Shown here piece after piece: positions 1 through 35,116 of a stretch of 35,116 nt of DNA (positions are counted from its first letter, which is position 1; every line of letters begins with the position of its first letter). The DNA lies in IMG/VR virus record IMGVR_UViG_2718218135_000003, one strand, 5' to 3'. The notes under the pieces were generated by a model that saw nothing but the letters and a program-made list of their open reading frames with translations, ran no database searches and had not been told where the DNA came from. This DNA is from a virus. Lineage: Duplodnaviria; Heunggongvirae; Uroviricota; Caudoviricetes. The position numbers were made by a program, and so were the translations under genes.

Positions 1-900
1 TTAACGCAATAATGGACAATCTGGTGGTAATCGACAACGCAACGCCGCCGGAAGTATTTCAATATGAAAGTTTTGTCCGCTCAACGGTTCGCCATCAAGA
101 TTAAAAGTGATTTCGTGTGGGGCTTGTATATCAAACCACGACGAAGCGCCTTCGATAATATTCGGGTTATCTTCGTCAGATTTTAAGGTTGATACGAGAG
201 CCGGAAGAATTTCATCGCCGGTAAAAATGCGCAGTTGCAGCAAGCCATCGTTAATTAACGCGTTCGGACACAATTGCTGACCGCCACCGGCCTGACGCCC
301 GTTACCAATACCAATGACCAGGGCGTCACCTTGCCAGTGAAAGTTTTCACCGCGGATTTCACAACGGTCCGGTTGCAGAGTATCCATGCGCATTAAGCCA
401 TGAATGATGTAAGAGACGCCACCCAGCGCGGCTTTTAATTTTTCCGGCGTTTCTGTGGTAATACGCGTCCCAAATCCGCCTGTCGCCATATTAATAAAAC
501 AGGTTTGTTTGTTGACCTGCGCCATATCTATCGCAATGGCGTTACCGGCAATTGCCAGTTTCAGCGCCTTATCCAGTGCCTCAGGAATCCCTACACTGGT
601 GGCAAAATCATTGGCGGTTCCTAATGGCAAAATTCCCAGCGCGGGTATGTCATCCCCCTCACACTGAATCAACGCCGTAGAAACTTCATTAATGGTGCCA
701 TCGCCACCACCGGCAATCACCGTTGCGACGCCCAACTTCCGGGCCTCCTCTACATATCGTGCGGCATCGCCTTTCTCCCAGGTGACCCGCACATGGATCG
801 TCATTCCTTCCTCACGCAACAGCATAATTGCTTCGCGCAAGGGTAGATTGTCAGTACTTTTGCCATTAAGAATCAGTAAGCTGGCGGGAAATTCTGCCAT
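1..900 (-). CDS. yegS: Lipid kinase YegS (diacylglycerol-kinase-like catalytic domain); host gene
   Basis: 299-aa ORF spanning the start of the window to an ATG at 900; GGDG-type kinase motif ([13 protein letters not shown]) and overall match to recalled E. coli YegS; length equals YegS. Confidence 0.85.
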
Positions 901-1314
901 GATCGTATGTGCCTTTATGATTGGTCTGTAGATAGTGTAGAGCAGAAAACAAAAGGTGGAGTCAGAACAGGATGAAAGTCGGAGGATAAAAAGTCAGTTC
1001 AAGTATGGAGGATTCAGTGGTTACCACCAGGAGCTTGCAATGGGGACAGCGAATACTAACGGCTGCCACCGATAAATTTCAAAAAAGAGCATATGCCTAA
1101 TATTCAACCAAACAGTGGCATCTTAAATATACTATTCCAAATATATTAAAGCCCCCATGGAGTTACCCTGAAGGGCCTCAATGTCCGTAATTCCTACTTA
1201 TGTAGGAAATGTTGTACAGAACATTTATTATAATCCTATTCAATTATAATAATCATGCCATTATTATATTTAAACACTAGAGAGTGTCGTTGGTATTTAA
1301 TGGGGGAAGGTGAG

Positions 1315-1632
1315 ATGAAAAAGATAGCTGCTATATCATTAATTAGTATTTTTATTATGTCTGGTTGTGCTGTGCATAATGATGAGACAAGTATCGGTAA
1401 ATTTGGTCTTGCATATAAAAGTAATATTCAGCGTAAACTCGATAACCAATACTACACCGAAGCCGAAGCTTCTTTAGCCAGGGGCAGAATATCTGGTGCA
1501 GAAAATATAGTAAAAAATGATGCAGCCCATTTCTGTGTTACTCAGGGCAAAAAAATGCAGATAGTTGACCTGAAGACAGAAGGTGCAGGATTACATGGCG
1601 TCGCTCGTCTGACATTCAAATGTGGAGAGTGA
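1315..1632 (+). CDS. yegR: Small lipoprotein YegR (host gene); start taken at internal ATG
   Basis: 105 aa from MKKIAAISLISIFIMSGC: signal peptide plus lipobox (MSGC); upstream part of the 125-aa ORF has no such features. Sits next to yegS as in E. coli. Confidence 0.6.
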   Translation: MKKIAAISLISIFIMSGCAVHNDETSIGKFGLAYKSNIQRKLDNQYYTEAEASLARGRISGAENIVKNDAAHFCVTQGKKMQIVDLKTEGAGLHGVARLTFKCGE

Positions 1633-1694: not shown

Positions 1695-1727
1695 AGCACG
1701 ATGCCGTTACGTGAAAGGCATCGTGCT
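1695..1727. other. Perfect 11-bp stem / 11-nt loop hairpin between yegR and attL
   Basis: AGCACGATGCC-gttacgtgaaa-GGCATCGTGCT read directly; no adjacent T-run, so function (terminator, REP-like element) is unclear. Confidence 0.35.
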
Positions 1728-1790
1728 ATGAAGGGAGATTCTATCGATGTGGTCAATGGAAGACGGTGACCAGGGATAGGGCTTATGCAT

Positions 1791-1817
1791 AAAAAATAAG
1801 CCCGTGTAAGGGAGATT
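1791..1817. repeat. attL: attL core: 27-bp direct repeat AAAAAATAAGCCCGTGTAAGGGAGATT
   Basis: Identical 27-mer at 33584-33610; lies just outside int on the left, the partner just outside ogr on the right, as expected for an integrated P2-type phage. Confidence 0.85.
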
Positions 1818-1896
1818 TAGGGTGTCACCAGTAGGGGCTTTCAACGGTACAATGCGGGTTTGAGCGGCATAAATTACCACTGAAAGCCCTTAAACG

Positions 1897-2910
1897 TTAC
1901 TCTACTGTGGACACGGTGTGGACACTCTCGGCTTCAGTACCACCTCTTAGCGGATTAAGAGAAATGGCGTCCTGAAGGTACTCTGGCGCAAAATGAGCGT
2001 AAACCATAGTTTGCTCAATCCGCGTGTGACCTAGTATCCGTTGTAGCGTGATAATACTTCCTCCATTAATCATGAAATGAGTGGCAAAGCTGTGCCTTAG
2101 TGCATGTGTGGCTTGCCCCGTTGGCAAATCCGGTTTTATTGCTTTCATTGTTCGTCTGAAGCGAGGGTAATCAGCATCAGGGAATAAAAAACCTCGTTTG
2201 TTATCCGCGATCATTTTGGCAACAGCCTCTGAGATCGGGACGGTGCGTGGTTTGTTTGTTTTCGTTTTAACAAACGTGACGCGGTTATGGATGATATTTT
2301 CTGCTTTCAAACGAGCTGCTTCTCCCCAACGTGCTCCTGTACTCAGGCAAAGAATCGCAATCTTTTTGTTGTCGCCGTCAAGTGCTGCAAGCAGTAAGGC
2401 AATTTCTTCCTGTGTGAGATAGCCTGTTTCTGGTTTTTCCTCCTTAAGCCTCTTTGTCCCTCTGATAGGGTGCTCACCAAAGAATAACTCCGCTTCAATC
2501 AGGGCTGTAAACATGCCGCTAATACATGTTAAATCACGATTGATACTCGAAGGTTTAATACCCTGACTTCTTCGGGTGGCGCAGTACTGGCTGATAAGGG
2601 ATTTCGTGATTTGAAATGCGCATGGGTCATTCGTTATTTTTGTGAAGATTTCAATTTTTCCAAGATTAGATTTCCCATGCTCTTCGTGTTTACCCTTTAA
2701 ATCCCACCAGATCTGTGTCAGTTCCGACAGACGTCGTTTGTCTGTTGGTTTTGATAGCCATTCTTTATTGTGGTGGTTGTACAACGTGTATTTTTCGAAA
2801 GCGACAGCTTCGCTTTTCTTATCAAACTTCCTACGGATGCGTTTTCCGTTACGTCCAGTAGGGCGGATGTCCACTTCATATCGACCATCATCGAGTTTTT
2901 TGATTGCCAT
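1897..2910 (-). CDS. int: P2-type integrase (tyrosine recombinase)
   Basis: 337 aa, same length as P2 Int; C-terminal catalytic residues (HxLRHSFATHF...GHTRIEQTMVYAH); position next to att core and C repressor. Confidence 0.9.
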   Translation of the reverse strand: MAIKKLDDGRYEVDIRPTGRNGKRIRRKFDKKSEAVAFEKYTLYNHHNKEWLSKPTDKRRLSELTQIWWDLKGKHEEHGKSNLGKIEIFTKITNDPCAFQITKSLISQYCATRRSQGIKPSSINRDLTCISGMFTALIEAELFFGEHPIRGTKRLKEEKPETGYLTQEEIALLLAALDGDNKKIAILCLSTGARWGEAARLKAENIIHNRVTFVKTKTNKPRTVPISEAVAKMIADNKRGFLFPDADYPRFRRTMKAIKPDLPTGQATHALRHSFATHFMINGGSIITLQRILGHTRIEQTMVYAHFAPEYLQDAISLNPLRGGTEAESVHTVSTVE

Positions 2911-4463: not shown

Positions 4464-4688
4464 ATGCATACAGTTTCTGAAAATCAGTGCGGTAAATACG
4501 CATTACTGCTGCAACAGGCCAGAACCGAAGCACAGGCCGACGCAGCGACGCGCTTTTCTTCTCATCTTGACGCCATGATTCGCCACATCACAAAGGCGGA
4601 GTTATCCCGCGTAGAGATAGTCGAGCTGCTCAGTCAGGAGTCGGAAAAATTTCACAATATCGGATTGTCTCGCGGGGAGGTGCTTTGA
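4464..4688 (+). CDS. Small early-operon protein (P2 orf80 position), hypothetical
   Basis: 74 aa from ATG at 4464 with GGAGAAAGTC upstream; earlier in-frame ATG lacks a ribosome-binding site. Confidence 0.5.
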
Positions 4689-5008
4689 TGTCCTGTTCTC
4701 ATTCAGTTGTATTACTGAATAACGCCTTAAAAATCGCCGTTATGAAAAATGGCGATTTGTCTCTTATTCAACTTTGTCTTGATAAAGAAAAACGCGACAT
4801 CACTGAATCTGTTATCGCGATTTATCAGAATGAATTAAACCTCCTGTCTGATGTGGTCAATTTACTTGTTAAACGCGCTGTATTCCACAAGCAAATTTCC
4901 TCAGTGGATGAACTGACAAAATTAACGACAGAACTTGCCAGTTATTGCGCTGATGTATCCAGGAAACTTAACGATAAAAGGGGTGATGCTGCCAACTTAC
5001 TGATTTAG
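4685..5008 (+). CDS. Early-operon hypothetical protein (P2 orf81 position); 3' end altered by IS1
   Basis: ORF runs into IS1 at 4982; last 8 codons (GDAANLLI) are IS1 sequence. Splicing out IS1 and one TSD copy gives ...NDKRS-stop. Confidence 0.5.
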
Positions 5009-5036
5009 TGTATGATGGTGTTTTTGAGGTGCTCCT

Positions 5037-5312
5037 GTGGCTTCTGTTTCTATCAGCTGTCCCTCCTGTTCAGCTACTGACGGGGTGGTGCGTAACGGCA
5101 AAAGCACTGCCGGACATCAGCGCTATCTCTGCTCTCACTGCCGTAAAACATGGCAACTGCAGTTCACTTACACCGCTTCTCAACCCGGTACGCACCAGAA
5201 AATCATTGATATGGCCATGAATGGCGTTGGATGCCGGGCAACCGCCCGCATTATGGGCGTTGGCCTCAACACGATTTTACGTCACTTAAAAAACTCAGGC
5301 CACAGTCGGTAA
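5037..5312 (+). CDS. insA: IS1 InsA (transposition regulator; N-terminal part of InsAB' transposase)
   Basis: 91 aa [37 protein letters not shown]... matches recalled IS1 InsA; A6C slippery tract (A_AAA_AAC, 5288-5294) near its end. Confidence 0.9.
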
Positions 5313-5734
5313 CCTCGCGCATACAGCCGGGCAGTGATGTGATTGTCTGCGCTGAAATGGACGAACAGTGGGGATACGTCGGGGCTAAATCGCACCAGCG
5401 CTGGCTGTTTTACGCGTATGACAGGCTCCGGAAGACGGTTGTTGCGCACGTATTCGGTGAACGCACTATGGCGACACTGGAGCGTCTTCTGAGCCTGCTG
5501 TCGGCCTTTGAGGTCGTGGTATGGATGACGGATGGCTGGCCGCTGTATGAATCCCGCCTGAAGGGAAAGCTGCACGTAATCAGCAAGCGATATACGCAGC
5601 GAATTGAGCGGCATAACCTGAATCTGAGGCAGCACCTGGCACGGCTGGGACGGAAGTCGCTGTCGTTCTCAAAATCGGTGGAGCTGCATGACAAAGTCAT
5701 CGGGCATTATCTGAACATAAAACACTATCAATAA
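5231..5734 (+). CDS. insB: IS1 InsB reading frame (expressed as InsAB' by -1 frameshift)
   Basis: 167-aa frame matching recalled IS1 InsB, overlapping insA in the -1 frame. Confidence 0.85.
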
Positions 5735-5765
5735 GTTGGAGTCATTACCATAAAAGGAGCTGATA

Positions 5766-5990
5766 ATGCCGGATAACGTAGATTTTATTCAGGAACAACA
5801 GGCTGAATTACTGGAGCGCCAGATTAACGCGGCAAGGGTAAAACATTGCGGTGCTTCTGCGCTGGTTTGCGAAGAGTGTGACGCGCCAATACCTGCTGCC
5901 CGTCGTGCGGCTTATCCGTCAGCCACGCGTTGTGTTTCCTGTCAGTCAGTCTTTGAAGCAAAAAACAAACATTACCGGAGAACGGCATGA
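5766..5990 (+). CDS. TraR/DksA-type C4 zinc-finger protein (P2 orf82 position)
   Basis: 74 aa with CxxC...CxxC (CEECDAPIPAARRAAYPSATRCVSCQ); AGGAG ribosome-binding site lies in the right-hand TSD copy. Confidence 0.7.
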   Translation: MPDNVDFIQEQQAELLERQINAARVKHCGASALVCEECDAPIPAARRAAYPSATRCVSCQSVFEAKNKHYRRTA

Positions 5991-6262
5991 GTATTCGTAT
6001 TGAAATTGGCGAACGTTATGTCGTTACCAGTGACAGCTTTCAGTTTATTCTCCACGAGAAAAAGAGAGCGGAAAGCGGTAAAAACGCCGGTCAGGAATGG
6101 CTGTCGGTGGTTGGTTATTACCCGAAATTAAGCCAGCTCGTTTCCGGCCTGATGCATCACGATATTCTGACCGGAAGCGCAAAGTCTTTTGCTGATTTAA
6201 ACGTGCAGGTTGAGCAACTCAGCAAGCGTTGTTCAGAGGCTTTTGGCTCATATGGCCGTTAA
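5987..6262 (+). CDS. Early-operon hypothetical protein (P2 orf83 position)
   Basis: 91-aa ORF overlapping neighbours by ATGA and by 11 nt with A; no recognisable motif. Confidence 0.5.
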   Translation: MSIRIEIGERYVVTSDSFQFILHEKKRAESGKNAGQEWLSVVGYYPKLSQLVSGLMHHDILTGSAKSFADLNVQVEQLSKRCSEAFGSYGR

Positions 6263-8528
6263 AGCCTCCGGGCGTTTTGTCCCTCCGTCAGCATTTGCCG
6301 CAGGCACCGGTAAGGCGTTTACCGGTGCTTATGCATGGAACGCGCCACGCGAGGCTGTCGGGCGCGAAAGACCCCTTACACGTGACGAGATGCGTCAGGT
6401 GCAAGGTGTTTTATCCACGATTAACCGCCTGCCTTACTTTTTGCGCTCGCTGTTTACGTCACGCTATGACTACATCCGGCGCAATAAAAGCCCGGTGCAC
6501 GGGTTTTATTTTCTCACATCCACTTTTCAGCGTCGTTTATGGCCGCGCATTGAGCGTGTGAATCAGCGCCATGAAATGAACACCGACGCGTCGTTGCTGT
6601 TTCTGGCAGAGCGTGACCATTATGCGCGTCTGCCGGGGATGAATGACAAGGAGCTGAAAAAGTTTGCCGCCCGTATCTCATCGCAGCTTTTCATGATGTA
6701 TGAGGAACTCTGCGATGCCTGGGTGGATGCGCATGGCGAAAAAGAATCGCTGTTTACGGATGAGGCGCAGGCTCACCTGTATGGTCATGTTGCTGGCGCT
6801 GCACGTGCTTTCAATATTTCCCCGCTCTACTGGAAAAAATACCGTAAAGGACAGATGACCACGAGGCAGGCATATTCTGCCATTGCCCGCCTGTTTAACG
6901 ATGAGTGGTGGACTCATCAGCTTAAAGGCCAGCGTATGCGCTGGCATGAGGCGTTACTGATTGCTGTCGGGGAGGTCAATAAAGACCGTTCTCCTTATGC
7001 CAGTAAACATGCCATTCGTGATGTGCGTGCACGCCGCCAGGCAAATCTGGAATTTCTTAAATCGTGTGACCTTGAAAACAGGGAAACCGGCGAGCGCATC
7101 GACCTTATCAGTAAGGTGATGGGCAGTATTTCTAATCCTGAAATTCGCCGGATGGAGCTGATGAACACCATTGCCGGTATTGAGCGTTACGCCGCCGCAG
7201 AGGGTGATGTGGGGATGTTTATCACGCTGACCGCGCCGTCAAAGTATCACCCGACACGTCAGGTCGGAAAAGGCGAAAGTAAAACCGTCCAGCTAAATCA
7301 CGGCTGGAACGATGAGGCATTTAATCCAAAGGATGCGCAGCGTTATCTCTGCCGTATCTGGAGCCTGATGCGCACGGCATTCAAGGATAATGATTTACAG
7401 GTCTACGGTTTGCGTGTCGTCGAGCCACACCACGACGGAACACCGCACTGGCATATGATGCTTTTTTGTAATCCACGCCAGCGTAACCAGATTATCGAAA
7501 TCATGCGTCGCTATGCGCTCAAAGAGGATGGCGACGAAAGAGGTGCCGCGCGAAACCGTTTTCAGGCAAAACACCTTAACCGGGGTGGTGCTGCGGGGTA
7601 TATCGCTAAATACATCTCAAAAAATATCGACGGCTATGCACTGGATGGTCAGCTCGATAACGATACCGGCAGGCCGCTTAAAGATACTGCCGCGGCTGTT
7701 ACCGCATGGGCGTCAACGTGGCGCATCCCGCAATTTAAAACGGTTGGTCTGCCGACAATGGGGGCTTACCGTGAACTACGCAAATTGCCTCGTGGCGTCA
7801 GCATTGCTGATGAGTTTGACGAACGCGTCGAGGCTGCACGCGCCGCCGCAGACAGTGGTGATTTTGCGTTGTATATCAGCGCGCAGGGTGGGGCAAATGT
7901 TCCGCGCGATTGTCAGACTGTCAGGGTTGCCCGTAGCCCGTCGGATGACGTTAACGAGTACGAGGAAGAAGTCGAGAGAGTGGTCGGCATTTACGCGCCG
8001 CATCTCGGCGCGCGTCATATTCATATCACCAGAACGACGGACTGGCGCATTGTTCCGAAAGTGCCGGTCGTTGAGCCTTTGACTTTAAAAAGCGGCATCG
8101 CCGCGCCTCGGAGTCCTGTCAATAACTGTGGAAAGCTCACCGGTGGTGATACTTCGTTACCGGCTCCCACACCTTCTGAGCACGCCGCAGCAGTGCTTAA
8201 TCTGGTAGATGACGGTGTTATCGAATGGAATGACCAGGAGGTCGTGAGGGCGCTCAGAGGTGCATTAAAACACGGTCTGAGAAGACCAAACCGTCAGCAA
8301 AGAAACGGAAGCCCGTTAAAACCGCATGAAATAGCGCCATCGGCCAGACTGACCCGGTCGGAACGAATGCAAATTACCCGTATCCGCGTTGACCTTGCTC
8401 AGAACGGTATCAGGCCACAGCGATGGGAGCTTGAGGCGCTGGCGCGTGGCGCGACCGTAAATTATGACGGGGAAAAATTCACGTATCCGGTCGCTGATGA
8501 GTGGCCGGGATTCTCAACAAACATATAA
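6252..8528 (+). CDS. A: Replication initiation protein A (rolling-circle nicking endonuclease)
   Basis: 758 aa from ATG at 6252 (MAVKASGRF...), close to P2 A in length and recalled sequence; the 772-aa ORF in the track begins at TTG. Confidence 0.9.
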   Translation: MAVKASGRFVPPSAFAAGTGKAFTGAYAWNAPREAVGRERPLTRDEMRQVQGVLSTINRLPYFLRSLFTSRYDYIRRNKSPVHGFYFLTSTFQRRLWPRIERVNQRHEMNTDASLLFLAERDHYARLPGMNDKELKKFAARISSQLFMMYEELCDAWVDAHGEKESLFTDEAQAHLYGHVAGAARAFNISPLYWKKYRKGQMTTRQAYSAIARLFNDEWWTHQLKGQRMRWHEALLIAVGEVNKDRSPYASKHAIRDVRARRQANLEFLKSCDLENRETGERIDLISKVMGSISNPEIRRMELMNTIAGIERYAAAEGDVGMFITLTAPSKYHPTRQVGKGESKTVQLNHGWNDEAFNPKDAQRYLCRIWSLMRTAFKDNDLQVYGLRVVEPHHDGTPHWHMMLFCNPRQRNQIIEIMRRYALKEDGDERGAARNRFQAKHLNRGGAAGYIAKYISKNIDGYALDGQLDNDTGRPLKDTAAAVTAWASTWRIPQFKTVGLPTMGAYRELRKLPRGVSIADEFDERVEAARAAADSGDFALYISAQGGANVPRDCQTVRVARSPSDDVNEYEEEVERVVGIYAPHLGARHIHITRTTDWRIVPKVPVVEPLTLKSGIAAPRSPVNNCGKLTGGDTSLPAPTPSEHAAAVLNLVDDGVIEWNDQEVVRALRGALKHGLRRPNRQQRNGSPLKPHEIAPSARLTRSERMQITRIRVDLAQNGIRPQRWELEALARGATVNYDGEKFTYPVADEWPGFSTNI

Positions 8529-23467: not shown

Positions 23468-24642
23468 CAGTGAAATACTACGCCATTCTGACTAATCAGG
23501 GCGCAGCACGGCTGGCTAACGCGACGATGCTCGGCAGTAAGCTGAATCTGACGCAAATGGCCGTTGGTGATGCGAATGGTGTCTTGCCGACACCAGACCC
23601 GGCACAGACAAAACTGATTAACCAGAAACGCATCGCGCCGCTGAATCTTCTGAGTGTTGACCCGAACAACCAGAGCCAGATTATTGCGGAGCAAATCATC
23701 CCTGAGAACGAGGGCGGATTCTGGATCCGTGAGATTGGGCTTTATGATGATGAAGGCGTACTCATTGCGGTGGCGAACTGCCCGGAAACGTACAAACCGC
23801 AGTTGCAGGAAGGCAGTGGTCGTACCCAGACTATCCGCATGATTCTGGTTGTCACGAATACCGAAGCTATTACGCTGAAAATCGACCCGTCGGTGGTACT
23901 GGCGACCCGTAAATACGTGGATGATGAAGTCCTGGAATTAAGGCTGTATGTGGATGACCAGATGAGAAACCACATTGCCGCACAGGATCCTCATACCCAG
24001 TATGCACAGAAATATAATCCGACATTTACCGGAGAACCAAAAGCGCCGACGCCTGCCGCAGGGAATAACACCACGCGGATTGCGACCACTGAGTTTGTTC
24101 AGGCCGCTATTACCGCTCTGATTAACGGTGCGCCAGCCACGCTGGACACACTGAAAGAAATTGCCGCAGCCATTAACAATGACCCGAAATTCAGTACCAC
24201 CATTAACAATGCGCTGTCAGGTAAGCAGCCACTGGATGAGACGCTGACTCATTTGAGTGGAAAGGATGTTGCCGGTCTTCTCGCATACCTTGGTTTGGGA
24301 GAAGCGGCTAAAAGGAATGTAGGGACAGGGGCGAATCAGATACCTGATATGGGTAGCTTCACGCTTTCTGTTTCAGGTACTGGATATCAAAAATTACCAT
24401 CAGGTTTTATTCTTCAGTGGGGCTCAATCGGCGCACCAGGCATTGCACAGGATGTAGTAACCCATTTTCCGATTGCATTTCCAAACAGATGTCTGCGTGT
24501 TTTGGTCTCACAAGACTACACACCAGATAGCGGGGCTGTTGGTTATATTGCCTGCGCAGGTTTTAGTGCCGACCCGGTTAAATTTATATCCAGAGCCAGT
24601 ACTCCTGGCCTCGGCGCTTCATTTTTAGCGTTAGGCTGTTAA
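23464..24642 (+). CDS. H: Tail fibre protein H (constant N-terminal part plus currently expressed variable C-terminal segment)
   Basis: 392 aa; N-terminus resembles the conserved tail-fibre N-termini of P2 H / Mu S / P1 S; a crossover site lies in-frame at 24278-24303. Confidence 0.8.
24278..24303. repeat. 26-bp recombination (crossover) site, left boundary of invertible tail-fibre segment
   Basis: TTCTCGCATACCTTGGTTTGGGAGAA; its right 14 bp are the exact inverted copy of the partner at 26146-26171; imperfect palindrome resembling hix/gix/cix sites. Confidence 0.7.
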
Positions 24643-31539: not shown

Positions 31540-32019
31540 ATGATGCTCGCGTTAGGTATGTTTGTTTTTATGCGCCAGACGCTGCCACACCAGACCATGC
31601 AGCGTGAATCAGATTATCGCTGGCCGTCAAATTCCCGTATCGGTAAACGGGATGCCTACCAGTTTCTCGGTGTGGGTGAGGAAAACATGACGCTTGCCGG
31701 TGTGCTTTATCCTGAACTGACCGGCGGAAAGCTGACGGTGACCACGCTCAGACTGATGGCAGAGGAAGGCCGGGCGTGGCCGTTGCTGGATGGCACCGGC
31801 ATGATTTACGGCATGTATGTCATCAGCAGGGTGAGTGAAACAGGGAGTATTTTCTTTGCAGACGGCACACCCCGGAAAATTGATTTTACGCTGTCGCTCA
31901 CCCGCGTTGATGAATCACTGGCCGCGCTTTATGGCGATATCGGTAAACAGGCGGAATCGCTCATCGGTAAGGCTGGCAGTATGGCGACCAGATTCACGGG
32001 TATGACGGGGGCGGGATAA
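31540..32019 (+). CDS. U: Tail protein U
   Basis: 159 aa, P2 U length and position. Confidence 0.8.
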   Translation: MMLALGMFVFMRQTLPHQTMQRESDYRWPSNSRIGKRDAYQFLGVGEENMTLAGVLYPELTGGKLTVTTLRLMAEEGRAWPLLDGTGMIYGMYVISRVSETGSIFFADGTPRKIDFTLSLTRVDESLAALYGDIGKQAESLIGKAGSMATRFTGMTGAG

Positions 32020-33182
32020 TGCTGGATGCGCTGACATTTGATGCAGGCAGTACACTGACGCCGGATTATATGCTGATGCTCGACAGCAGGGATATTACCG
32101 GCAATATCAGCGACCGTCTGATGAGCATGACCCTGACGGATAACCGGGGCTTTGAGTCTGACCAGCTTGATATTGAACTGAATGATGCCGACGGGCAGGT
32201 CGGGCTGCCGGTTCGTGGCGCTGTCCTGACGGTGTATATCGGCTGGAAAGGTTTTGCCCTGGTATGCAAAGGGAAATTTACCGTTGATGAGGTCGAACAC
32301 CGGGGCGCGCCGGATGTGGTCACCATCCGCGCCCGGAGTGCAGATTTTCGCGGGACGCTCAATTCCCGCCGTGAAGGCTCCTGGCATGACACCACGCTCG
32401 GTGCGATTGTTGAGGCGATAGCCTCCCGTAACAGGCTGGAAGCCAGTGTCGCGCCGTCACTGGCAGGAATTAAAATCCCGCACATCGACCAGTCGCAGGA
32501 GTCCGACGCGAAATTCCTGACCCGTCTTGCAGAACGCAACGGCGGTGAGGTGTCGGTAAAAATGGGAAAACTGTTGTTTCTCAAAGCGGGGCAGGGGGTG
32601 ACGGCCAGTGGTAAAAAAATCCCGCAGGTCACCATAACCCGCAGCGACGGCGACCGCCATCATTTTGCGATTGCTGACCGTGGAGCCTATACCGGCGTAA
32701 CGGCAAAGTGGTTACACACCAAAGACCCGAAGCCGCAAAAGCAGAAGGTAAAACTGAAACGCAAAAAGAAAGAGAAACACCTGCGCGCACTGGAGCACCC
32801 GAAAGCGAAACCGGTCAGGCAGAAGAAAGCGCCTAAAGTACCGGAAGCGCGCGAAGGTGAATACATGGCCGGTGAGGCTGACAACGTTTTTGCCCTGACC
32901 ACGGTATATGCCACAAAAGCGCAGGCCATGCGCGCCGCTCAGGCGAAGTGGGATAAACTGCAACGGGGCGTTGCGGAGTTCTCCATCAGCCTGGCTACCG
33001 GTCGGGCAGATATTTACACGGAAACACCGGTCAAAGTGTCTGGCTTTAAGCGCGTCATAGACGAGCAGGACTGGACAATCACTAAGGTGACACACTTTCT
33101 GAATAATTCCGGCTTCACGACGTCCTTAGAGCTTGAGGTCAGGCTTTCTGATGTGGAGTACGAAACAGAAGATGATGAGTGA
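32019..33182 (+). CDS. D: Tail protein D (late control/tail gene D)
   Basis: 387 aa, P2 D length and position. Confidence 0.8.
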   Translation: MLDALTFDAGSTLTPDYMLMLDSRDITGNISDRLMSMTLTDNRGFESDQLDIELNDADGQVGLPVRGAVLTVYIGWKGFALVCKGKFTVDEVEHRGAPDVVTIRARSADFRGTLNSRREGSWHDTTLGAIVEAIASRNRLEASVAPSLAGIKIPHIDQSQESDAKFLTRLAERNGGEVSVKMGKLLFLKAGQGVTASGKKIPQVTITRSDGDRHHFAIADRGAYTGVTAKWLHTKDPKPQKQKVKLKRKKKEKHLRALEHPKAKPVRQKKAPKVPEAREGEYMAGEADNVFALTTVYATKAQAMRAAQAKWDKLQRGVAEFSISLATGRADIYTETPVKVSGFKRVIDEQDWTITKVTHFLNNSGFTTSLELEVRLSDVEYETEDDE

Positions 33183-33263
33183 TGTTTTTATTTTATCTGT
33201 TTGTTTTATAAGGATAAATTAACTAAAATGGCACCATCAACAAAACCGGAAGAGGTGCTCGCG

Positions 33264-33482
33264 ATGTTTCATTGTCCTTTATGCCAGCATGCCGCACATG
33301 CGCGTACAAGTCGCTATATCACTGACACGACAAAAGAGCGTTATCACCAGTGCCAGAACGTGAATTGCAGCGCCACGTTCATCACTTATGAGTCGGTACA
33401 GCGATACATCGTGAAGCCGGGAGAAGTCCACGCCGTAAGACCGCACCCGTTGCCGTCAGGGCAGCAAATTATGTGGATGTAA
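33264..33482 (+). CDS. ogr: Late gene transcription activator Ogr (zinc finger)
   Basis: 72 aa from MFHCPLCQHAAHARTSRYITDTTKERYHQCQNVNCSATF..., matching recalled P2 Ogr with its Cys4 motif; upstream part of the 93-aa ORF is not P2-like. Confidence 0.85.
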   Translation: MFHCPLCQHAAHARTSRYITDTTKERYHQCQNVNCSATFITYESVQRYIVKPGEVHAVRPHPLPSGQQIMWM

Positions 33483-33493
33483 TTACAAACAGG

Positions 33494-33520
33494 AAGCCCC
33501 TCAGTCGAGGGGCTTTTTTG
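33494..33520 (+). terminator. Rho-independent terminator after ogr
   Basis: GCCCCTC-agtc-GAGGGGC followed by TTTTTT, 12 nt after the ogr stop. Confidence 0.7.
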
Positions 33521-33583
33521 TCGATGTGGTCAATGTGTGGACGTGACCAGAAATAAATCCTTTTATTTCATTGTATTACGCGT

Positions 33584-33610
33584 AAAAAATAAGCCCGTGT
33601 AAGGGAGATT
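33584..33610. repeat. attR: attR core: second copy of the 27-bp repeat AAAAAATAAGCCCGTGTAAGGGAGATT
   Basis: Exact duplicate of 1791-1817, downstream of ogr. Confidence 0.85.
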
Positions 33611-33754
33611 ACACAGGCTAAGGAGGTGGTTCCTGGTACAGCTAGCATTTTATGGGTTATGTTTTTCAGCGAAACGGATGATAACCTTAATAAATACAGC
33701 TGTATGTGATCGGTTTCTAAGAATTTTCCATCCGGGAAAAATAATCGAAATTAA

Positions 33755-35116
33755 TCACTTACCGTGGGGATTACGCGTGGTTTCCCCGGAGAAATTACGC
33801 ATCAGCAGCGCGTAATTGAGCTCAAGATCCTGCGGGACCGGTAGCCACACAGTATAACCATCGCCTGGTGCTATCGGCATAGCTTCGCCTTTGGCGTTTT
33901 CCATGTGCTCAAGGGTAAAATTAATGTTGCCTTGCGGCGTCATCAGCTCAAGGCTGTCGCCAACGGAGAATTTATTTTTCACCGCTACCGCCGCGAGGTC
34001 CCCCTTGCGCTCACCGGTAAACTCACCAACAAACTGCTGGCGGTCAGAAACTGAATAACCGTATTCGTAGTTCTGATAATCGTCGTGAGTATGACGACGC
34101 AGGAAACCTTCAGTATAGCCACGATGCGCCAGACCTTCCAGAGTTTCCAGCAGGCTGGTATCGAACGGTTTTCCCGCAGCGGCGTCATCGATAGCTTTGC
34201 GGTAAACCTGTGCGGTGCGTGCACAATAGTAGAAAGATTTGGTACGACCTTCGATTTTCAGCGAATGCACGCCCATTTTGGTCAGGCGTTCTACATGGGC
34301 GATGGCGCGCAGATCTTTCGAGTTCATGATGTAAGTGCCGTGCTCATCTTCAAACGCGGTCATATACTCGCCCGGACGCTGGGCCTCTTCGATCATAAAC
34401 ACTTTGTCGGTTGGTGCGCCGATACCCAGCGTCGGCTCAACATTTTGCACCGGAATCGGCTCGTACTTGTGTACGATGTTGCCAACATCATCTTCTTTCC
34501 CTTCCTGGACGTTGTACTCCCAGCGGCAGGCGTTGGTGCAGGTGCCCTGGTTCGGGTCGCGCTTGTTGATATAGCCAGAGAGCAGGCAGCGACCGGAGTA
34601 GGCCATGCACAGCGCGCCGTGAACGAAGATCTCGATCTCCATATCCGGCACCTGATTGCGGATCTCTTCAATCTCTTCCAGCGACAGCTCGCGAGAGAGG
34701 ATCACGCGGGTCAGGCCCATTTGCTGCCAGAATTTCACCGTCGCCCAGTTCACGGCGTTAGCCTGCACCGAAAGGTGGATCGGCATTTCAGGGAAGTGCT
34801 CACGCACCAGCATAATCAGCCCTGGATCGGACATAATCAGCGCATCCGGCCCCATTTCCACCACCGGTTTCAGGTCACGGATAAAGGTTTTCAGCTTGGC
34901 GTTGTGCGGTGCAATGTTGACCACGACATAAAACTTTTTCCCCAGCGCGTGGGCTTCATTGATGCCGAGCTGAAGATTTTCGTGGTTGAATTCGTTGTTG
35001 CGCACACGCAGGGAATAACGCGGCTGGCCCGCATAAACAGCATCTGCGCCATAAGCGAAAGCGTAACGCATATTTTTCAGCGTTCCCGCCGGGGAAAGGA
35101 GTTCCGGTTTAAACAT
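33755..35116 (-). CDS. yegQ: Peptidase-U32-family protein YegQ (RlhA-like); host gene
   Basis: 453 aa, complete (ATG at the window end); recalled identity to E. coli YegQ; Cys-rich central region typical of the U32 family. Confidence 0.8.
   Translation of the reverse strand: MFKPELLSPAGTLKNMRYAFAYGADAVYAGQPRYSLRVRNNEFNHENLQLGINEAHALGKKFYVVVNIAPHNAKLKTFIRDLKPVVEMGPDALIMSDPGLIMLVREHFPEMPIHLSVQANAVNWATVKFWQQMGLTRVILSRELSLEEIEEIRNQVPDMEIEIFVHGALCMAYSGRCLLSGYINKRDPNQGTCTNACRWEYNVQEGKEDDVGNIVHKYEPIPVQNVEPTLGIGAPTDKVFMIEEAQRPGEYMTAFEDEHGTYIMNSKDLRAIAHVERLTKMGVHSLKIEGRTKSFYYCARTAQVYRKAIDDAAAGKPFDTSLLETLEGLAHRGYTEGFLRRHTHDDYQNYEYGYSVSDRQQFVGEFTGERKGDLAAVAVKNKFSVGDSLELMTPQGNINFTLEHMENAKGEAMPIAPGDGYTVWLPVPQDLELNYALLMRNFSGETTRNPHGK

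Follow-up and report, generated by a model that had tools for sequence, protein, structure and literature searches.

Attachment-site scars and prophage remnants at hotspots formed by RNA genes, the use of cyaR as a target by phage P2, and the P2 remnant carried by Escherichia coli K-12 are all well known. That remnant, a cryptic element with a D' fragment (yegZ), ogrK and an attR, was reportedly described by Barreiro and Haggard-Ljungquist in 1992, and the attB site at cyaR is the one that we take to be locI. The small RNA gene itself (ryeE/cyaR) is among the sRNA genes targeted by phages (PMC3603311). Arm-type Int sites have the consensus tgTGGaCa, and the arm repeats are conserved among P2-like phages generally (PMC3448106). 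The window analysed here, meaning the whole stretch of 35,116 nucleotides, carries an intact P2-type prophage at this site (Table 1), and we compare its left junction with the systems above. The segment immediately before the left core, 1744-1790, possibly together with 1731-1740, is probably what decay has left of the P-arm end of an ancient P2-type prophage, resident in an ancestor of E. coli.

Table 1. Layout of the window, with the basis on which each feature was placed
Feature	Position	Strand	Basis
yegS, left host flank	1-900	-	ORF and RefSeq annotation
Ancestral yegS-proximal flank (true B arm)	901-987		Alignment with Escherichia sp. E1V33 as far as ...GATGAAAGTCG (window 981)
Decayed core, probable attL of the ancient insertion	988-1014	+	AAAAAGTCAGTTCAAGTATGGAGGATT, 18/27 ungapped, in register with the outgroup core
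P'-arm-like sequence after the decayed core	1015-1045	+	Alignment to the present attL
yegR, small lipoprotein gene (PF27694) in the 809-bp insertion	1315-1632	+	RefSeq annotation
Perfect hairpin with 11-bp stem, downstream of yegR, no T run	1695-1727	+	RNA fold
AAGGGAGATT, polymorphic, same as the last 10 core bases	1731-1740	+	String match
Probable relic of a P2 Int arm-type binding region	1744-1773	+	Alignments; P2 'Int, P arm' protein_bind 24293-24320, AF063097
Rest of the probable decayed P arm, TTATGCAT adjoining the core	1774-1790	+	MAFFT
27-bp core AAAAAATAAGCCCGTGTAAGGGAGATT, attL of the resident prophage and probable attR of the ancient relic	1791-1817	+	Exact repeat of 33584-33610
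P' arm, resident prophage (TGTGGACA at 1906 and 1917)	1818-1945	+	Matches P2 Cox and Int P' arm features
Integrase gene, resident P2-type prophage	1897-2910	-	337-aa ORF; same attP-relative position as P2 int
D gene, resident prophage	32019-33182
ogr, resident prophage	33201-33482	+	ORF; equivalent place to P2 ogr
ogr terminator hairpin and T run	33495-33519	+	Sequence; annotated rho-independent terminator in P2
Intact P arm, resident prophage	33521-33583	+	Features transferred from AF063097
Int arm sites within the intact P arm	33521-33548		Transfer from AF063097
IHF site within the intact P arm	~33552 to core		Transfer from AF063097
27-bp core, attR of the resident prophage	33584-33610	+	Exact repeat
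cyaR (ryeE) sRNA gene	33587-33672	-	Rfam RF00112 match (100.7 bits, E = 3.4e-19; gathering score 47)
yegQ/trhP, right host flank	33755-35116	-	ORF and RefSeq annotation

The stretch beside the left att core

The 27-bp core occurs in the window as the two copies that bound the resident prophage, with no third copy, and the RF00112 match places the right-hand one as the 3' half of the terminator of CyaR. The resident P arm has the P2 sequence except for the last ~15 bases before the core (MAFFT). A first-pass annotation of this DNA had pointed out that 1744-1775 resembles the phage arm at 33522-33551. The resemblance is real, with limits that shift slightly: the shared string TCGATGTGGTCAATG starts at 1744 and at 33521, and GACGGTGACCAG, whose phage counterpart GACGTGACCAG lies at 33540-33550, occupies 1762-1773 and so ends at 1773; a further string, GTGACCAG, is found at 1766 and 33543. 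Local alignment of 1640-1790 with the phage P arm gave a score of 38, compared with 14.7 ± 2.2 in shuffled sequences, none of which reached 38 in 2000 trials, and a second test gave a z of about 10.8. When the window arm, P2 and Peduovirus P22H4 were aligned with MAFFT, 1744-1790 was collinear with the P arm throughout, from TCGATG to the core, with 37 of 46 alignable bases identical.

P arms of the P2 type carry two direct Int repeats (tgTGGaCa, ~40-60 bp from the core), of which one is left here: the first, TGTGGTCA, is intact at 1748-1755, and the second has been lost through the change of TGTGGAC to GAAGACG, GAAGACGG standing in the place of TGTGGACG. A deletion of 16 bp has taken out the CTTTTATTTCATTGTA of the phage arm, inside the annotated P2 IHF site (24324-24357), and no IHF site lies between the arm repeat and the core. 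The arm adjoins the 27-bp core directly and in the P-to-core orientation, the eight bases beside the core (TTATGCAT, against TTACGCGT in the phage) matching at six positions. An 8-bp perfect inverted repeat, GGGCTTAT...ATAAGCCC, spans the boundary between arm and core at 1779-1803, and the flank 1633-1830, taken as RNA, is predicted to fold with unusual stability (-71.5 kcal/mol, z = -4.4).

The stretch is a property of the species. The query 1255-1830, which takes in the left flank and the core, found matches covering 80% or more of it in at least 5388 of 5426 complete E. coli genomes, and the presence of the P-arm-like flank in nearly all E. coli marks it as an evolutionary scar, not a strain-specific one. 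A composite query, in which the left flank, a single core and the right flank were joined, was found in a single place, contiguous or nearly so, in 4562 genomes. Among 40 rows of this search inspected as a spread sample, 33 covered the composite in one place: 23 of them by an uninterrupted match of ~516 bp, which is a truly empty site, seven with an unrelated 170-bp insertion directly behind yegR and three in K-12-like form. Across 1620-1817 strain TK3887, whose site is empty, shows no difference from the window composite. According to the first-pass annotation, the idea of an earlier integration should be dropped if the naive attB already contained 1731-1790 unchanged and if the similarity to the phage arm lay within chance; empty sites do contain the segment unchanged, and the similarity lies well outside what shuffling produces.

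The flank with its P-arm-like stretch is also shared by K-12-type loci (L008, L002 and GenBank record AY639599, titled 'Phage TP' but in fact this region of the chromosome), where it is followed in order by a truncated core, the 3' part of D, ogrK, a complete P arm and a core that is intact. The truncated core reads ...AAGCCCGTGTA followed by GCAGAG (junction form ...GCCCGTGTA followed by GCAGAG, inside the core after core position 19), and 611 bp lead from the left junction to the intact 27-bp core. The left flank of the window has neither D' nor ogrK, and L002 and L008 have both besides the 1731-1790 segment. Since K-12 carries that segment to the left of its own remnant, the K-12 remnant is a separate and later event. 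The suggestion that the K-12 element reflects recurrent use of the site is borne out, both by this separate ogrK/D' remnant and by P arms found at cyaR in nine other Enterobacteriaceae; as a source of 1744-1790 the element is disqualified by the same arrangement. The K-12 lineage also differs from the window in having seven A's instead of six at the start of the truncated core (L008 ~505-560, window 1765-1817) and two SNPs in the relic arm (GGTTACCAGAG).

An 809-bp insertion ending at the att core

A scan anchored on yegQ returned 80 loci from other Enterobacteriaceae, 79 of them analysable. The close outgroups among them were Escherichia sp. E1V33 and E. albertii; the E. albertii site is occupied by another element, and E1V33 (L010; YegS 94% identical) alone offers a close unoccupied site. 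In E1V33 and ~48 other taxa a distance of 74-144 bp separates the core from the start of yegS, the interval being the conserved upstream region of yegS, and P-arm similarity is absent from these ~49 taxa (z < 2.2); yegR is absent from all 80 outgroup loci. Between 910 and 981 E1V33 and E. coli are identical at 64 of 72 bases, after which homology breaks, to resume at the core. Compared with E1V33, E. coli thus carries a specific insertion of 809 bp (982-1790), and against unoccupied outgroup sites this lineage-specific insertion falls exactly at the att core.

The left end of the insertion resembles an attL. For a position fixed in advance, the match of 988-1014 to the core has a binomial p of 2.5e-5. 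In the whole window just 2 of ~35,000 positions reach 18/27, which is about the chance expectation. The decayed core and the P'-like sequence after it share 41 of 59 positions with the present attL (1788-1846), and a 159-nt global alignment of this end scored 38, against -11 ± 9.8 in shuffles (z about 5). The left-end evidence spans about 60 nt at 69% identity, and beyond ~1046 the similarity to P' is weak (p = 0.08). The string CAGTGGCA at 1113, at roughly the right offset, was considered as a remaining Int repeat of the P' arm and rejected, the distal alignment being not significant (p = 0.083). The core is directly repeated at both ends of the insertion, intact on the right and at 18/27 on the left, with P' following the left copy (1015-1045), P preceding the right one (1744-1790) and comparable decay at the two ends (67-80% identity). 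Taken together, the boundaries and arms give an insertion signature that reads B, decayed core, decayed P', yegR, decayed P, core, B'. Such an order would be expected to remain if a P2-type element had integrated site-specifically and had then undergone internal deletion and decay. The first-pass annotation had looked for the matching old att end in AAGGGAGATT at 1731; it is the decayed core ~800 bp further left that takes this role.

The interior of the islet (~1046-1743) yielded no phage homology in blastn and tblastx comparisons with the resident prophage. When 50,697 phage records were searched with 982-1310 by blastn and with YegR by tblastn, the only matches were ON470606 and AY639599, both of which bear host flank. 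Residual phage genes were not found inside the insertion, so no phage gene confirms its origin. Of the two records, ON470606.1 (vB_EcoM-720R8) is a 'phage' entry that includes the E. coli flank with yegR and the islet, and AY639599.1 includes the 3' end of yegR, the K-12-type remnant and yegQ annotated as 'putative protease'. Close homologues of YegR (PF27694) are found almost only in E. coli and Shigella. Divergent homologues stand in unrelated contexts, with nucleotide homology confined to the coding sequence, and because these contexts are not prophages, yegR may have entered the islet separately. A match to phrog_21109 was rejected as a sign that YegR is a recognisable phage cargo protein, the match probably deriving from host-contaminated records.

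In some E. coli strains (L004, L005 and L099, among them one that is ST131-like) an AT-rich insertion of 170-174 bp, unrelated to att sequences, lies directly after the yegR stop codon (window ~1637); it explains two-piece matches of ~686-733 bp, including that of an O25b:H4-ST131 strain. In E. coli FDAARGOS_1077 most of yegR and the downstream spacer are deleted and both ends of the islet are kept, that is, the decayed core with P'-like sequence on one side, and the hairpin, P-arm relic and core on the other.

Other occupants of the cyaR site

P2-type P arms adjoin cyaR in 9 of the 79 analysable outgroup loci. At L070 and L081 yegS is 1.7-2.7 kb from the core, a distance into which no full-length prophage fits. 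Short insertions are present at L061 and L066, their resemblance to a decayed P arm being weak (z about 5) and the IHF region missing from the latter; many further taxa have insertions of 0.2-2 kb at the same place. In the P2-type prophages of L058 (Citrobacter youngae), L071 and L087 the interval from ogr to the P arm holds extra ORFs (201, 165 and 91 aa) oriented against ogr; this slot is empty in the window prophage and in P2. In E. albertii NBRC 107761 (L011) the region 4530-7091 (locus coordinates) contains cdtA (PF03498) together with a nuclease gene resembling cdtB (PF03372). A truncated P2-type P arm, adjoining cyaR, lies ~0.9 kb away, and in the 2.8 kb examined there were no matches to ogr, D, int or yegS. 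This type strain seems to carry, at the att site used by the window prophage, a P2-type remnant with toxin genes. Scars of this kind accumulate at the 3' end of cyaR, a hotspot of long standing.

Some Enterobacter loci differ in other respects. In L009, L068, L074, L078, L082 and L084 an ORF that is on the plus strand when the locus is oriented as the window (...QIDELIAWVEEREGK in L074) ends at the att core, yegS lies ~625-633 bp from the core, and the ~630-bp interval has no P-arm similarity. L009, whose record is titled Enterobacter hormaechei B17-3, encodes a YegQ 100% identical to that of the window and has the E. coli core variant (CCCGTG), with a yegS that is 74% identical and a flank of Enterobacter type to the left of the core, which suggests either recombinational import of the E. 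coli yegQ-cyaR segment or a chimeric assembly.

Origin of the relic and competing readings

From the homologies, the species-wide distribution, the polarity given by the outgroups and the two insertion boundaries, all of which are observed, we infer a past lysogeny followed by selection. A P2-type element, or another with a P2-type attP, would have integrated into the CyaR terminator of an E. coli ancestor, and integration at the core would give the order B-core-P'...P-core-B'. Selection on cyaR would have kept the right-hand core intact, leaving the redundant left core and both arms to decay at about the neutral rate, and deletions would have removed the phage genes to leave the 809-bp islet with yegR. 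Because the core survived, the site would have stayed a working attB open to reuse, and later arrivals at the same core would include the parent of the K-12 ogrK/D' remnant and the intact prophage of the window. The 'naive' P2 attB of E. coli is, on this account, the attR of an ancient P2-type relic, and since the relic lies beside the reused core, the resident attL reads relic P arm, core, P'. With one arm repeat and the IHF site lost, and with polymorphism at adjacent positions, the relic is probably inert and most likely serves no function in present-day E. coli.

As the first-pass annotation stated, the AAGGGAGATT of 1731-1740 is identical to the 3' end of the core; the string occurs at 1731, 1808 and 33601. 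The annotation went on to read the junction as core end, arm-like stretch and core left by an earlier integration, of which the arm holds good as old att material and the core end is unproven. It could be the surviving 3' end of a second old core, in a stacked layout of decayed P, decayed core, (CTA), decayed P and core produced by two successive ancient integrations, the inner of which would have been deleted from just past its core to just short of its P arm. Speaking for this are the exact 10-mer (p about 0.006-0.04, varying with the region tested, and 0.006 for 1690-1743), a best alignment suggesting TTACGTGAAAGGCAT-CGTGCTATGAAGGGAGATT against TTACGCGTAAAAAATAAGCCCGTGTAAGGGAGATT, and the rank of position 1714 as the second-best in-register core match within the islet. 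That match (1714-1740, 15/27), however, is not significant, one or two such being expected by chance per ~860 positions. An alignment carried on into P-arm-like sequence was likewise not significant (p = 0.08-0.26), and extension of the 10-mer to a unit of P arm and core gave p values of 0.04-0.27 under three scoring schemes in which the 10-mer was discounted. The 10-mer is moreover polymorphic: the exact 48-mer 1713-1760 that contains it is present in 2580 of 5426 genomes, with 628 more slightly different and ~2200 without a match. The reading in K-12 and B2-like strains is AAGGAGGATT, with 8 of 10 positions as in the core end; this allele was seen in L008 and L002 (both K-12-like), L004 and L007, and the divergent lineage L099 carries AAGGGAGATT. 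The stretch also overlaps the 11-bp-stem hairpin, which has a sequence logic of its own, and we consider a second old core doubtful. The hairpin was also considered as a terminator for yegR and discarded, as it fails a consensus terminator scan; the two substitutions that it carries in L004 are offset by one pair and are thus not compensatory.

A single ancient prophage would also be compatible with the view that its P-arm site has become a functional, selected part of the E. coli attB, the retained Int arm repeat, 36 bp from the core, aiding Int capture or biasing directionality. The 15-mer that contains TGTGGTCA is identical to that of the phage in every E. coli sequence examined, which could reflect constraint instead of neutral decay, and the site is presumably locI, the preferred site of P2. 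An identical run of 15 bases is nevertheless not very unlikely at ~77-80% identity, the second repeat and the IHF site are destroyed, adjacent relic positions are polymorphic (GGTGACCAGGG or GGTTACCAGAG), and the attB sites of tyrosine integrases normally need core-type sites only; judged from these motifs, a selected function is unlikely. Less likely still is the fuller version in which the preferred P2 site is a fossil attR, yegR is the fossil's cargo, and the kept repeat still binds Int and favours reuse; if it were true, a phage lineage would have left an improved landing pad for its descendants. Homology by itself has no direction, and the P arm of P2 might instead have been captured from the E. 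coli B arm by aberrant excision, with no ancient prophage. We hold this to be very improbable, given that P2-type elements located at cyaR in nine other genera or species conserve both arm repeats and the A/T-rich IHF region, that the arm repeats are conserved across P2-like phages (PMC3448106), that the degenerate copy is the chromosomal one, that unoccupied sites in ~49 taxa lack P-arm sequence, and that a decayed core with P' stands at the other end of the insertion. A recent strain-specific scar, a residue of K-12 type with ogrK, or a chance resemblance has nothing in its favour beyond the resemblance itself and is scarcely credible: the segment is unchanged in empty sites and present in at least 5388 of 5426 genomes, K-12 has both it and, further to the right, its own remnant, and none of 2000 shuffles attained the alignment score.

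The ancient prophage therefore being the reading that we prefer, the naive P2 attB would hold phage-derived arm DNA, phage homology beginning about 47 bp before the core. This is relevant to the definition of attB, to the design of att constructs and to prophage boundary calls at cyaR, and it places yegR inside an old att-bounded islet, a candidate route of arrival for this E. coli-specific orphan gene. In the searchable literature we found no description of the E. coli B arm as a decayed P arm, nor of yegR as lying in an att-bounded islet. No new mechanism is revealed; the core belongs to an RNA terminator under selection, which would keep the site reusable as the displaced core and the arms decay, and at least three generations of occupants are visible in the islet, the K-12 remnant and present-day prophages.

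With the P arm of the P2 attP (AF063097 24293-24383) the relic shares its order and spacing logic, the identical strings TCGATGTGGTCAATG and GTGACCAG, and a TTAYGCRT that adjoins the same 27-bp core; it differs in its mutated second repeat, in the 16-bp deletion that takes most of the IHF site, and in the absence of an upstream ogr and ogr terminator, in whose place stand yegR and a different hairpin. The K-12 remnant has in common with it the att core at cyaR and a prophage shortened by deletion with its attR side kept, but is younger, is restricted to K-12-like strains and keeps D', ogrK and a full P arm. The cargo-bearing P2-type elements at cyaR (L011, L058, L071 and L087) likewise have non-phage genes directly inside the P arm and so provide precedents for cargo there, although yegR bears no relation to them, runs in the other direction and may not have arrived with a phage. 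As at other RNA-gene hotspots, the 3' end of an RNA gene is targeted, the copy on the RNA side is preserved while the displaced one decays, and the site is reused repeatedly; what sets the present locus apart is that the relic is fixed across the species, has retained arm-type besides core-type sequence and forms one arm of the attB of P2.
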